IMG/VR virus record: IMGVR_UViG_3300011008_000036
Location: 56,848 to 120,847 of that record
Length of the DNA stretch: 64,000 nt
Strand: one strand, 5' to 3'
DNA from: a virus
Taxonomy: Duplodnaviria; Heunggongvirae; Uroviricota; Caudoviricetes
The position numbers and the translations under genes were made by a program. The notes under the pieces are model-generated. The model saw only the letters and a program-made list of their open reading frames with translations. It was not told where the DNA came from and did no database searches. Positions 214-60,481 of this stretch are shown piece by piece. Every line of letters begins with the position of its first letter. Position 1 is the first letter of the stretch.

Positions 214-224
214 AATGATATATT
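214..224 (+). promoter_or_regulatory. AATGATATATT motif copy 1
   Basis: 6 nt after ligA stop; context aatgatatattcttatatgg; about 100 nt upstream of next + gene. Confidence 0.35.
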
Positions 225-326
225 CTTATATGGATACAAGTTAGTTCTTAAATATAATTCATATGTTTAAATAACTTAATTAAGTAAATTTTTGATAATA
301 TTAATAAAATGGAGGGAACTTTTCTT

Positions 327-1337
327 ATGAGTGATAAAAAGAAAGTAAAAATTCCAGATTCTGTTAAGCACCTAAAATATTCTCTTGAAAAATATGCCAA
401 GAAGAATAATATTAAATTAAAAGGTAAAGGCATGCCTAAAAGAGAAAAGAAAAAAGTTGCAAAACGATTAATGGAAGATTATTCAGAAAATGCATTAATA
501 GGATTAAACAAAGCTGTGAAAATTCTTACAGAACATCCCGATTGTGAAAATAATGAAAAAATTAAAAATGGTATTGAGAACATAATTCTCAATCCTGAAG
601 TTGTGAAACATATTGCAAAATTATATAAGAAAAATGAAGATCAATATAAGAATCTCATTTATCTTCCAAACATGATTGTGAACACACTATCATATTATGA
701 TAATGATGCTAATCTTAGTGAAGATGAGAAAAAGCTTAAAGCTTCATTGGATCCAGAATCATTAATTGCATTCTGTGAAAAGATTCTCAAGAAACAGATT
801 AAGCGATATATTAAATTAGGATTAGATCCAGAAATAGCTTATCATATTGCAACAATTATACCATCAGCAAGATTGTTCAAAGTTAATGTTCAATGGTATA
901 GAAAATTAATTAGAGAATTATATGAATTAGCTGAGAATAAAGATATTGATGTAGAAGCAATTCTTCATGCTGTTTGTAGAATTGATAAAGAAGAAGTTAT
1001 TTCCAAGAAAGCAATGCTTAGAGAATTTTATTCTGAGTTTATTCTGCAGAAATATACAAATAAGCAAGCTAAATTTAATGAGAAACAAAAAGAACTTCAT
1101 GAAGGTCTGATAGAAAATGCTTTAAAATATATTGATGATTTAAAATTATCCAAAATTCGCGATATTCTTCGTGGATATATTAAAACTAGAAAGAAAGCTG
1201 AAGAATTTAAAAATGATTCAAAAAGAATCATTAAGTTTGTTGATCATGCGAATAGTAATAGTCCGTATGAAAACATTAAGAAAGTTGTACAGGATTTAAT
1301 TGCAGAGAATTCTGCTAATGAAGTATACTTATCATAA
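327..1337 (+). CDS. hypothetical protein (Lys-rich)
   Basis: Long ORF; GGAGG RBS at 313-317 ahead of ATG 327 (ORF track start 309 in same frame); no recognisable motifs. Confidence 0.5.
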   Translation: MSDKKKVKIPDSVKHLKYSLEKYAKKNNIKLKGKGMPKREKKKVAKRLMEDYSENALIGLNKAVKILTEHPDCENNEKIKNGIENIILNPEVVKHIAKLYKKNEDQYKNLIYLPNMIVNTLSYYDNDANLSEDEKKLKASLDPESLIAFCEKILKKQIKRYIKLGLDPEIAYHIATIIPSARLFKVNVQWYRKLIRELYELAENKDIDVEAILHAVCRIDKEEVISKKAMLREFYSEFILQKYTNKQAKFNEKQKELHEGLIENALKYIDDLKLSKIRDILRGYIKTRKKAEEFKNDSKRIIKFVDHANSNSPYENIKKVVQDLIAENSANEVYLS

Positions 1338-1358
1338 GAAAAGGAGAACATTATAACC

Positions 1359-1889
1359 ATGAGCAAAAATAAAAAGATTAAGAATATGGATAAGGATACA
1401 AGAAGACACCTTGAAGCAACATCTGATATGCTTAAAAAGAAGGGTGAACGCTTTAAATTTAAAGGTGGTAAAGGAAATAAGAAAGTTGTTAAGAAACTTA
1501 GAAAATTATGTATGCATTGGATGATCAGAAAAGGAAAACCAATACCAACAGTCAGTGATGATGGGCATGGGAATTGGGAATGTTATCTGTGTCATTCAAA
1601 GTTTCCGATTCTTCCAAAGACAGAAGAAGAATATGATCAAATAATTGCTCAAGCTCTTGAAGCAGTTAACCAAATAGTTTTTCTCGCTGTACATTTAGGA
1701 GGAGACTCGGAAGATATTAAATCGTTCCTACGATTGAAAGAAGATCTTCCAAAGTTCAGGAAAATAACAAGAGAAGTTATAAAGCAAAGCAATAAACGTC
1801 AACAATTTGAAGCAAATTCTGAAGATGATACAATAATGAATCAATTCAGTCAATATGGTGGAATTCAATATAACTTAGGAAAGAAATAA
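1359..1889 (+). CDS. hypothetical protein
   Basis: ORF with AAGGAG upstream; basic N-terminus, CxxC..H pair (WECYLCH). Confidence 0.5.
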   Translation: MSKNKKIKNMDKDTRRHLEATSDMLKKKGERFKFKGGKGNKKVVKKLRKLCMHWMIRKGKPIPTVSDDGHGNWECYLCHSKFPILPKTEEEYDQIIAQALEAVNQIVFLAVHLGGDSEDIKSFLRLKEDLPKFRKITREVIKQSNKRQQFEANSEDDTIMNQFSQYGGIQYNLGKK

Positions 1890-1977
1890 TTACCTCTATT
1901 ATTATATTATTTAACAATGGGATATTGATAAATCCCATTGTTAAATATATTATTTTATTATGAAAGGATAAAAAGTT

Positions 1978-2826
1978 ATGGGAGAAAAAACATTAGGAAG
2001 ATTAAAGATAGAAAATCTTTCCAGTGATTTGGGAGATGCTAGTAAAGAAATGGAAGATATGTATGAAGATGAAAAGAAAAACAGAAACAATTTCAGTTAT
2101 TGGTTCAACAAAATAATTTGTAATGATGTCATCAGAGAATTTCTAATTCCAAAATCCACTATTGTACAAATTCCATTTCATATTTGGTCAATATTTGAAT
2201 TAGATGCAGTTTCTGTTGAAATGGATAAACTTCAAAATTTTGTTAATACTTCACTAATTCCTAAAATGGGTTCTCAATATCAATACTTTGTGAAAAATGC
2301 ATGCTTTTCTGATAAATTTTCATATAATAATTGCGTTACAAATAAATTAAGAATACTTGATTCATTCACTAGTATTTGTTACAGTGCATTATGTTTGGGA
2401 GCAAATGGAAATACTGAATTCATAATTCGAGATTACATTGGTTATGATTATAAGAAATATGCTACAATATATAGTGGCTTACCATTAAGATGTGAAATTC
2501 GTGTGTTTTATGATGCTGACAAGAAACAATTACTATATCCAGTAAATTATTGGGACTATGATTATGTATTCCCAAATTTACGAGAGCGAACAGATCAGAT
2601 TGTATTTAAAACAATTTGGCCTGAACTTCAAGAAACATATAAAAAATATGAAGATATTGTATGTTCTAAAGTTGAAAAAGCATTTAAAACTGTTGATTTA
2701 GATGGGAAATGGTCAATTGATATAATGATTGATGAGTCTAATGATTGGCCTAGTTTCTATTTAATTGATATGGCTACTGCTGAAACTTCAGCATACTGGA
2801 AATATCACACAAATGATATTGAATAA
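1978..2826 (+). CDS. hypothetical protein, possible ATP-grasp-like fold
   Basis: AAAGGA RBS; C-terminal segment WSIDIMIDESNDWPSFYLIDMATAETSAYW resembles the ATP-grasp C-terminal strand-loop (yvlEvN..Pg) but weakly. Confidence 0.45.
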   Translation: MGEKTLGRLKIENLSSDLGDASKEMEDMYEDEKKNRNNFSYWFNKIICNDVIREFLIPKSTIVQIPFHIWSIFELDAVSVEMDKLQNFVNTSLIPKMGSQYQYFVKNACFSDKFSYNNCVTNKLRILDSFTSICYSALCLGANGNTEFIIRDYIGYDYKKYATIYSGLPLRCEIRVFYDADKKQLLYPVNYWDYDYVFPNLRERTDQIVFKTIWPELQETYKKYEDIVCSKVEKAFKTVDLDGKWSIDIMIDESNDWPSFYLIDMATAETSAYWKYHTNDIE

Positions 2827-2850
2827 TTTTATAAAGGAGACTGATTAATT

Positions 2851-59281: not shown

Positions 59282-59297
59282 AAAGGAGAATATATAA

Positions 59298-59954
59298 ATG
59301 GACAATAATCAAGTGAAATATTTCTTATCAGAATATGAAGATTTCAAAATTGGAGATGCTGTAAAATGCACACGTAAAGAACGAATTTACGTTAACAATA
59401 TTTATGGTGAAATATTATTTATAACAGGACCTTATGAAGATAAAAAAGTTGATAAAACATATTACAATTTACATATTTTCATTAAAGATTATTCTATCAT
59501 GGCGGCTATTCCAAAATATGCTCAAAATCGATATAATAATTGGAAGATTAGTAAATACCAATCTTCAACAAATAAATGTTCTTCCGATGATAATTCGTGT
59601 ACAATCAGAAATATAGATGTTTATGATTATATTAAGGATTTATCCTATGAAATTGTTTCAGTTGTTAATTCTGATAATCCAAAGAAAATAAGATTGCTGG
59701 AAAAATATTTAAACACAATTCTTGATATGTGTGAATTATATATATTGGAAAATGAACAATCCAATCATAAAGATAAAGTTATCAAATCATCAAATTTACT
59801 AACTGTAAAATCCCTTTATAAAGTATATAAGACAGTATCAAAATTTAAAATTTTCTATAATGAATGGATGTTCACTGATGATTATAACGATTCATTAAAT
59901 TGGATAATTGATAACATTACTATGATACTTGGTACAAATAATTCTATTTCATAA
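59298..59954 (+). CDS. hypothetical protein
   Basis: AAAAGGAG RBS; 218 aa. Confidence 0.45.
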   Translation: MDNNQVKYFLSEYEDFKIGDAVKCTRKERIYVNNIYGEILFITGPYEDKKVDKTYYNLHIFIKDYSIMAAIPKYAQNRYNNWKISKYQSSTNKCSSDDNSCTIRNIDVYDYIKDLSYEIVSVVNSDNPKKIRLLEKYLNTILDMCELYILENEQSNHKDKVIKSSNLLTVKSLYKVYKTVSKFKIFYNEWMFTDDYNDSLNWIIDNITMILGTNNSIS

Positions 59955-59959
59955 TTAAA

Positions 59960-59997
59960 ATTTATTAGAAGACTCAATTAAGAGTCTTCTAATAAAT
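59960..59997 (+). terminator. hairpin terminator
   Basis: atttattagaagactc-aattaa-gagtcttctaataaat. Confidence 0.55.
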
Positions 59998-60063
59998 TAT
60001 CGTATCATTTTTCTTTTTATTAATATATTATGAATATGAAATAATAAATTAGAAAGGATATTG

Positions 60064-60441
60064 ATGTTCATGAGGACAATCAAAGATATTATCGAGTTAT
60101 TGAACAAAGTAGCATTTCGGTTCTCAAGAGGCTACAATGAATTTTCCAATTCTCCAATACAATCATGGGGAAATGGTTTCCGTGGTATAAAACTCAGTTT
60201 TGCCGAGTATACGACTCGGCGCCCTGATACATCTTGTTTCACGGCAAAAATTTCATCTGTTGAAGATGTTGAATTTGTTGATAGTCGCAATTATGTAGTA
60301 ACAATCGGCGAGAGCCGATTTAAGCTTGATGATATATTATATCAAAATATTGACGAATGTCGTCTTCCCAATAAAGCAAAAAAGTTTCTAATAGAACTTG
60401 ATAACGCTTGTGTTGGAATCATGCAGCGTCAATTAAATTGA
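60064..60441 (+). CDS. hypothetical protein in a compositionally foreign (higher-GC) gene cassette (moron-like)
   Basis: AAAGGA RBS 6 nt before ATG 60064; codons CGG/CGC/GGC/GCC/TCG clustered here (cgtggtataaaactcagttttgccgagtatacgactcggcgccctgat); own GC-rich terminator. Confidence 0.45.
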   Translation: MFMRTIKDIIELLNKVAFRFSRGYNEFSNSPIQSWGNGFRGIKLSFAEYTTRRPDTSCFTAKISSVEDVEFVDSRNYVVTIGESRFKLDDILYQNIDECRLPNKAKKFLIELDNACVGIMQRQLN

Positions 60442-60470
60442 AATGGGCCTCTTGACCCATTTTTTTTTTT
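60441..60470 (+). terminator. GC-rich rho-independent terminator
   Basis: aaatgggcct-cttga-cccattt followed by T10. Confidence 0.6.
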
Positions 60471-60481
60471 GATGATATATT
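60471..60481 (+). promoter_or_regulatory. GATGATATATT variant motif copy directly after terminator T-run
   Basis: gatgatatattatatttgtaactg; no + strand gene follows within the window (faces the 3' end of - gene 60584-61789). Confidence 0.3.

Follow-up and report, generated by a model that had tools for sequence, protein, structure and literature searches.

The DNA analyzed here, referred to below as the window, is a 64-kb stretch (positions 56,848 to 120,847 of IMG/VR record IMGVR_UViG_3300011008_000036, Caudoviricetes) in which an 11-mer, AATGATATATT, recurs between genes. The window has a GC content of 26% and, judging from its gene content, is a piece of an uncultivated jumbo phage of the AR9/phiKZ type. 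The product of the gene at 16309-18438(+) is a piece of the beta' subunit of a phiKZ/AR9-type RNA polymerase (RNAP; PHROG 3015), and its best named homologues are the beta' C-terminal subunits of the non-virion RNAP (nvRNAP) of AR9 (g154), PBS1, and Staphylococcus jumbo phages; by homology, we treat the gene as the orthologue of AR9 g154. Also encoded are an AR9 g128-like portal protein, an SbcC-like protein, RNase H, a g214-like virion protein, a phiKZ-type head protease, an endolysin, and the products of nrdD and nrdG; of these two, nrdD has its closest counterpart in Clostridium phage c-st. A megablast search with 8 kb of the window gave no DNA-level match among GenBank phages, a 30-mer common to two copies of the motif had no exact match in IMG/VR, the nrdD protein, looked up by exact identity, matched no record, and scans of the window returned no tRNAs or Rfam families.

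An initial annotation of the window had described the 11-mer as recurring far beyond chance, always in + orientation, and had proposed that it is a promoter for a phage multisubunit RNAP. Counts of the motif, which refer to the window unless relatives are named, bear out the recurrence and the + strand positions. Exact copies start on the + strand at 214, 16230, 22715, 31225, 31456, 42712, 43298, and 58955, but a ninth lies on the - strand at 16179-16189, so the claim of a single orientation holds for eight copies only. Against these nine copies, 100 dinucleotide shuffles gave a mean of 1.17 and a maximum of 5. On a gene map built from codon usage and ribosome-binding sites, none of the nine exact copies lies outside intergenic DNA, which accounts for 7.6% of the window; the expectation for intergenic DNA alone is 0.15 copies, with a maximum of 2 (order-1 Markov model, 2000 simulations). 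The variant GATGATATATT occurs in intergenic DNA at 60471, as first reported, and once on the + strand within the open reading frame (ORF) at 60070-60441, where it occupies 60328-60338 and not, as given earlier, a position starting at 60329; this in-ORF copy is probably a chance or non-functional occurrence.

The motif also stands out when no word is specified beforehand. Among over-represented intergenic words of 10-11 nt it ranks at the top, the ribosome-binding site aside, and among those of 9 nt its core, ATATATTAT, ranks first (19 copies vs. 2.7 expected); the shorter core TATATTAT is likewise enriched (26 vs. 6.8 expected). Its placement relative to genes is narrow. At eight sites the distance from the stop codon of the upstream + strand gene is 6, 7, 15, 21, 4, 18, -1, and 30 nt, in line with the earlier statement that eight of nine copies lie within 30 nt of a + strand stop, while for the copy at 16230 this distance is 210 nt. 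In the seven exact copies with a co-oriented gene, 46-113 nt separate the start of the motif from the next start codon.

When the nine exact copies are aligned in register, conservation extends past the 11-mer. Position 0 is T or C, position 13 is T in every copy, position 15 is A in eight of nine, and position 20 is always a purine (G in six, A in three, no pyrimidine). Since G makes up only roughly 10% of intergenic DNA (intergenic GC, 20.5%), the six G residues at position 20 are far from chance. The full element is (T/C)AATGATATATT-N-T, followed after 6 nt by a purine, and the alignment holds no -35-type information. The TGTA that had been noted near +15 is loosely present, but its register is not fixed from copy to copy, and it was rejected as a second fixed box. 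We also rejected a derivation of the copies from one longer, duplicated repeat: sequence beyond the motif is common to the pair at 16179(-) and 31456(+) alone, and the remaining flanks are unrelated. A looser form, A-W-T-K-ATATATT-H-T-N5-T-R, serves as the clade-wide consensus; the window phage is thus predicted to have a somewhat wider family of early promoters, with the 11-mer as its dominant subclass.

The closest mapped counterpart of this element is found in AR9, for which 41 early promoters were located by differential RNA sequencing and primer extension, yielding the consensus AAATATATATTAT-(6N)-G+1 (Lavysh et al., 2017; PMC5312081). The annotation of KU878088 lists 34 promoter features, 33 of which carry the label early; a consensus that we re-derived from them agreed with the published one, down to the T at position 19 and the G at position 20. 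The window motif is identical to it at 11 of 13 positions, with T13 invariant and a purine at the AR9 +1 position. Moreover, AATTATATATTAT (at 13372 and 14570) and AAGTATATATTAT-N6-G (at 49604) match individual AR9 promoters letter for letter, and a weight matrix built from AR9 alone picked 49604, 31456, 16179(-), and 14570 as its top four sites in the window, the best of them, 49604, scoring 19.7 bits. Placement is similar as well: AR9 early promoters lie 5-30 nt past the preceding stop and ~35-130 nt before the next start codon, as with the one 5 nt after g027, and in one case the promoter overlaps the end of the preceding gene (g158). Both phages carry one copy before the nvRNAP beta' C gene. 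In AR9 the annotated early promoter of g154, gtAAATATATATTATtaacttGta, is 55 nt before the start codon, and its window counterpart, tcAATGATATATTTTtaatatGta at 16230, is 79 nt before the start of the orthologue. The two elements have in common the ATATATT core, T13, a 6-nt spacer leading to a purine preceded by T (the mapped +1 in AR9, the predicted one in the window), and a location a few nt past the upstream stop and ~35-110 nt ahead of the next start codon. They differ in that positions 3-4 are TG (or TT) in the window and AT in AR9, that position 12 is A, C, or T in the window and a nearly invariant A in AR9, and that the predicted +1 is A in one third of the window copies. The relationship is a distant one (~26% amino acid identity in nvRNAP beta' C). 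The DNA of AR9 contains uracil.

Early transcription of AR9 is insensitive to chloramphenicol and independent of protein synthesis, and has been ascribed to a virion RNAP (vRNAP) which enters the cell by injection (PMC5312081). Considering the match to AR9, with the same spacing to the predicted +1 purine, the motif is most likely the core of the early promoters of an AR9/phiKZ-type jumbo phage, and we predict that it is read by the vRNAP.

A competing explanation is that the motif is an extended -10 promoter of the host sigma-A/sigma-70 type (TG-n-TATATT), with host RNAP transcribing the phage genes. The two indeed look alike, since both have TG, one base, a TATA-type hexamer, and a start several nt downstream; TGATATATT is one base off TGnTATAAT, the conserved purine lies 8-9 nt past the hexamer, near the upper limit of sigma-70 start spacing, and a canonical TGTTATAAT occurs at 16218-16226, 12 nt upstream of the 16230 copy and before the nvRNAP beta' C gene. 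The distribution of these words in the window points the other way. Canonical TGnTATAAT is not enriched in intergenic DNA, where only 2 of its 16 occurrences lie (one being that at 16218), and TGATATAAT is intergenic in 0 of 10, as against 11 of 15 for TGATATATT. The base n does not vary from A, no TG[CGT]TATATT lies in intergenic DNA, and the hexamer is always TATATT. A -35-like signal is absent from the alignment, and matches to sigma-70-type promoters occur at chance level (184 vs. 180.6 expected). At orthologous sites relatives have TT or AT where the window has TG, which makes the G dispensable, and in AR9, the nearest mapped homologue, the element is read by the virion polymerase (PMC5312081). 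We consider a host promoter improbable.

Conservation among relatives lends further weight to a phage promoter. The nvRNAP beta' C gene served to collect 17 IMG/VR contigs (11 non-redundant) of up to 292 kb, with a GC content of 26-48% and 68-73% amino acid identity in this protein. In all 17 (11/11 non-redundant), NNATATATT lies roughly 40-110 nt before the start of the orthologue, in most of them right after a terminator hairpin and T-tract, and a purine follows it after 8 nt in 15 of the 17 loci (9 of 11 non-redundant), with C in contigs L006 and L014. Contigs of 40-48% GC keep the core though their flanks are no longer AT-rich, as with ggaTGATATATTttgcaaatG in L012. The site before the 858-aa (amino acid) gene (window position 22715) is kept in 8 of 8 relatives as TTATATATT. 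Of the 10 loci shown, 8 have the core in the region past the head-protease gene (window position 31225), and in 7 of these it comes directly after the terminator hairpin of that gene. Across the window and 11 relatives, T[GT]ATATATT[ACT]T occurs 82 times, 73 of them intergenic; 56 copies have a co-oriented gene start no more than 130 nt away, and in 52 of these 56 the predicted +1 is a purine. A portal-protein search for related loci found nothing, and relatives of nrdD came mostly from other phage types in which nrdD and nrdG are adjacent, with no promoter between them, so they are uninformative on the 42712 copy.

Relatives also bear on which phage polymerase would read the element. Contig L018 has homologues of AR9 vRNAP g145 and g264 and of nvRNAP g089, and on contigs L008 and L011 (289-292 kb) a g145-like gene accompanies the nvRNAP beta' C gene. 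The clade thus has the two-polymerase system of AR9 and phiKZ, and the window phage presumably carries a vRNAP as its relatives do. The early motif precedes the nvRNAP beta C gene in L018, and was absent, on the strand of the gene, from the 200 nt before vRNAP beta' N genes in six relatives. Since nvRNAP genes are early and vRNAP genes late in AR9 and phiKZ, this is the pattern expected of an early promoter. In the window, the motif-preceded genes are non-structural (nvRNAP beta' C, nrdG, SbcC-like, the 858-aa gene, and many small proteins), and none of the portal, virion-protein, protease, or endolysin genes has the motif directly before it. The phage-RNAP promoter first proposed is therefore supported by the AR9 match, by the placement ahead of nvRNAP beta' C as in AR9, by syntenic conservation across the GC range of the relatives, and by the absence of the motif upstream of structural, lysis, and virion-RNAP genes.

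These same data weigh on the idea that the motif is a middle or late promoter for the nvRNAP rather than for the virion enzyme. An nvRNAP subunit is encoded in the window, and sequence alone is silent on which phage polymerase reads the motif. Nevertheless, in both the window and its relatives the motif precedes an nvRNAP subunit gene, and this enzyme could not produce the first copy of itself. The known nvRNAP promoters are unrelated, being AACA-N6-TA/G in AR9 and TATG in phiKZ (PMC5312081, PMC7598289), and the motif is missing upstream of structural and vRNAP genes, which are late in AR9. We regard recognition by the nvRNAP as quite improbable. The AR9 late promoter itself gave two isolated matches, without a pattern, before the presumed late genes of the window. 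In contigs L078, L081, and L082, ACCAAGTT(T/C)ATAAT is conserved ~30-45 nt before the vRNAP beta' N-like start (3001), and other relatives have TTACA...TATAA-like sequences upstream of vRNAP beta' N; ACCAAGTT(T/C)ATAAT is a candidate late (nvRNAP) promoter, unlike the AACA-N6-TA/G of AR9.

The initial annotation had left room for a role in termination or processing, and a sequence-specific signal ending or processing the transcript of the upstream gene would suit the eight sites within 30 nt of an upstream stop, the hairpin following the 42712 copy, and the lack of a gene downstream of that at 60471. This option did not hold up. The motif has neither dyad symmetry nor a T-run/U-tract of its own; the variant at 7496 comes after a - strand gene, in a divergent region that needs a + promoter and has no + transcript to end; a complete hairpin and T-tract already precedes the motif at 16230, at 60471, and in most relatives; and the mapped early promoters of AR9 also sit just past stop codons. 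The hairpin after 42712 and the orphan at 60471 are both real, but they are adjacent elements. A signal of this kind is thus extremely improbable. Membership in the intrinsic terminator class was rejected on the same grounds, as the motif lacks a G+C-rich inverted repeat followed by a T-run, and the hairpins are separate from it: one lies downstream at 42712, whereas those at 60471 and 16230, like those of the relatives, lie upstream.

A site for a transcription regulator of the phage, or for another DNA-binding protein, could also be conserved as strictly as these 11-13 nt, and the copy at 31456 does lie within an inverted repeat. An operator is very improbable, since the motif is asymmetric and strictly oriented with the downstream gene, keeps a fixed spacing to a conserved purine, and matches a mapped promoter element. 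The hairpin promoters of N4-type vRNAP (a 5-7 bp stem with a 3-nt loop) were considered and discarded as well; an inverted repeat is present only at 31456, and the polymerase here is multisubunit.

An early promoter of this form agrees with what is known of other jumbo phages. Every RNAP-encoding jumbo phage examined has an AT-rich, phage-specific element of ~10 nt centred near -10 (PMC7598289). In phiKZ and phiR1-37, a highly conserved AT-rich block of ~10 nt near -10 has T-rich DNA upstream, the start site is 6 nt past the block, and the virion RNAP is the reader (PMC5312081, PMC7598289, PMC8244752), an architecture like that proposed for the window; the differences are that the consensus is specific to each phage, that the hosts are Gram-negative, and that phiKZ transcribes inside a vesicle/nucleus. 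Staphylococcus phage MarsHill has a predicted early core, TATATTAT, upstream of 29 genes (bioRxiv 10.1101/2020.12.14.422802). It resembles the window in its TATATT(A)T core, found bioinformatically before many genes, and in having the same kind of two-polymerase system, but it is a prediction only, and the comparison covered the core.

By comparison with these promoters, the element would span about -20 to -7, counted from the start site, and would be recognized by a virion-packaged, multisubunit vRNAP injected along with the DNA, with initiation at the purine 6 nt past the 13-nt element. Early non-structural genes, including those for nvRNAP beta' C, nrdG, the SbcC-like protein, and many small proteins, would in this way be expressed without the host polymerase. 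Since the genome is tightly packed, the brief interval that follows one gene would hold the promoter of the next early unit, each unit having its own, as in AR9. RNA 5' ends at position 20, early expression, and the vRNAP as reader are all predictions from comparative promoter assignment.

Several observations weigh against a vRNAP-read early promoter or its assignment at single sites. There is no vRNAP beta or beta' gene within the window, and TGATATATT bears the resemblance, with one mismatch, to the sigma-70-type extended -10 (TGnTATAAT) discussed above. Three copies (16179-, 31456+, and 60471+) have no protein gene downstream, and a transcript from 42712 is predicted to begin with the first base of a strong hairpin, where it could terminate prematurely. 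Finally, a single-base deviation can abolish promoter activity in AR9 (PMC5312081), and some of the looser variants may not be functional.

The individual sites, given here as the 13-nt element, are distributed over the whole window. The first, AATGATATATTCT at 214-226(+), has its predicted +1 G at 233, 94 nt before the gene at 327-1337. The variant ACTGATATATTAT at 7496-7508(+) lies where 6157-7473(-) and the SbcC-like gene (7541-10108) diverge, with a predicted +1 A at 7515. Two copies of the variant AATTATATATTAT follow: that at 13372-13384(+), which equals the AR9 promoter at AR9 position 47, has a predicted +1 A at 13391 and precedes the gene at 13420-13782, and that at 14570-14582(+) precedes a gene for an HNH endonuclease (14630-15367). 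The exact copy ahead of nvRNAP beta' C, AATGATATATTTT-taatat-G at 16230-16242(+), has its predicted +1 at 16249, 60 nt before the gene. The variant ATTTATATATTAT occurs at 18859-18871(+), right after the terminator hairpin at 18822-18861 and before a polyphosphate kinase-like gene (18908-20662), and again, as ATTTATATATTAT-taaata-G, at 35367-35379(+), where the predicted +1 is 28 nt before a QueC-like gene (35414-36280).

Among the remaining exact copies, that at 22715-22727(+) is followed by the 858-aa gene (22761-25337), which starts 27 nt past the predicted +1 G at 22734, and that at 31225-31237(+), 15 nt past the head-protease stop, has a predicted +1 A at 31244 and precedes a 49-aa ORF (31286-31435). 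The copy at 42712-42724(+) begins 4 nt past the nrdD stop and precedes nrdG (42801-43280), with a predicted +1 A at 42731, and the next, at 43298-43310(+), has a predicted +1 G at 43317, 78 nt before the gene at 43395-43691. At 58955-58967(+) the copy overlaps the stop of 57448-58956, with a predicted +1 A at 58974, and is followed by small ORFs and the gene at 59298-59954. The variant AAGTATATATTAT-aacttt-G at 49604-49616(+), which equals the AR9 promoter at AR9 position 94727, precedes the gene at 49650-49871. On the - strand there are two possible variants: AATAATATATTAT-atatgt-A at 30273-30285, a weak call, 59 nt before the gene at 29026-30207(-), and AATCATATATTCT-aatagt-A at 63861-63873, 32 nt before a second HNH endonuclease gene (62944-63822(-)).

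The three copies that lack a downstream protein gene form a group apart. The orphan variant GATGATATATTAT at 60471-60483(+) lies right after a terminator of hairpin and T10 (60441-60470) and faces a convergent - strand gene. The exact copy at 16177-16189(-) has a predicted +1 G at 16170, and the predicted transcript would reach the hairpin at 16035-16077; that at 31456-31468(+), with a predicted +1 G at 31475, is flanked by the inverted repeat 31440-31487. A stretch of 36 nt (CAAWATAATGATATATTATAATTGTGAATAAATAAA) that extends over the first 11 transcribed bases is common to these two exact copies, and strong hairpins (z about -5.3) form in the predicted transcripts of both and end them. Each predicted transcript (within 16030-16189(-) and 31440-31690(+)) holds a micro-ORF with a ribosome-binding site and an end of the form Lys/Arg-Pro-Pro-stop, MTYIKYKPP* and (M)YIIIRPP*, and the sequence CCACCUU can pair with an AAGGUG-like stretch that precedes it. 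Such transcripts might act as small RNAs or specify leader peptides. We found nothing similar to them in relatives, and the notion that the two are homologous RNAs was set aside, as the gapped alignment past the first ~11 transcribed nt seems to carry no meaning.

At 42712 the situation is of another kind. A perfect 14-bp hairpin (42731-42764; z = -6.1), whose first base is the predicted +1, lies between nrdD and nrdG and probably also serves the upstream nrdD as a terminator. It is conceivable, albeit rather unlikely, that the orphans drive short hairpin-terminated early RNAs (~50-200 nt), or that the 42712 module combines an nrdD terminator with a protective 5' stem-loop of the nrdG mRNA. 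The orphan RNAs could in that case be phage small RNAs or leaders with Pro-Pro-stop micro-ORFs. No counterpart of these arrangements turned up in relatives. If either were true, the early promoter would also serve regulatory RNA or mRNA stability, which is undescribed for AR9-type phages.

Other features of the window were recorded alongside the motif. The product of 13849-14571 has 39% identity to the N-terminal, non-polymerase part of AR9 g078 (a precursor, virion RNAP-associated protein), and its gene is kept just upstream of nvRNAP beta' C in all relatives but L018. The HNH endonuclease genes at 14630-15367(+) and 62944-63822(-) show 48% and 40% identity to AR9 g271, a homing endonuclease inside the nvRNAP beta' N intron; the window counterparts appear free-standing. 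The product of 18908-20662 has polyphosphate kinase C-terminal domains (PF17941, 8e-35; PF13090, 1e-32), an unusual auxiliary function with a promoter variant just before its gene, while 46349-47929 encodes a TROVE/Ro-like RNA-binding protein (phrog_850, 7e-120; DUF2828, DUF7788) and the QueC-like product of 35414-36280 (phrog_1550) hints at 7-deazaguanine metabolism. A near-identical ribosome-binding context, AAAGGAGAG(T/A)GT, occurs at 26275-26297, 51735-51757, and 53161-53183, before three structural genes, those for a virion protein, a 451-aa product (with a very high coding score), and the portal, none of which has the early motif upstream. Terminator-like hairpins are abundant in 1-20000 (16 vs. 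3.4 expected) and are long, perfect, and often bidirectional; examples are 10664-10704, 12847-12888, 16035-16077, and 18822-18861.

The feature is solid but expected, being predicted by current knowledge for any phage of the AR9/phiKZ type. Its value lies in offering a ready map of the early transcription units in an uncultivated, AR9-like clade from low-GC, probably anaerobic hosts. The ATATATT-N-T core and its spacing to +1 are constant across relatives of 26-48% GC and out to Bacillus and Staphylococcus jumbo phages, and the natural variation among copies, in which positions 3-4 vary freely and 5-11 and 13 do not vary, is useful for understanding how a sigma-less vRNAP recognizes its promoter.

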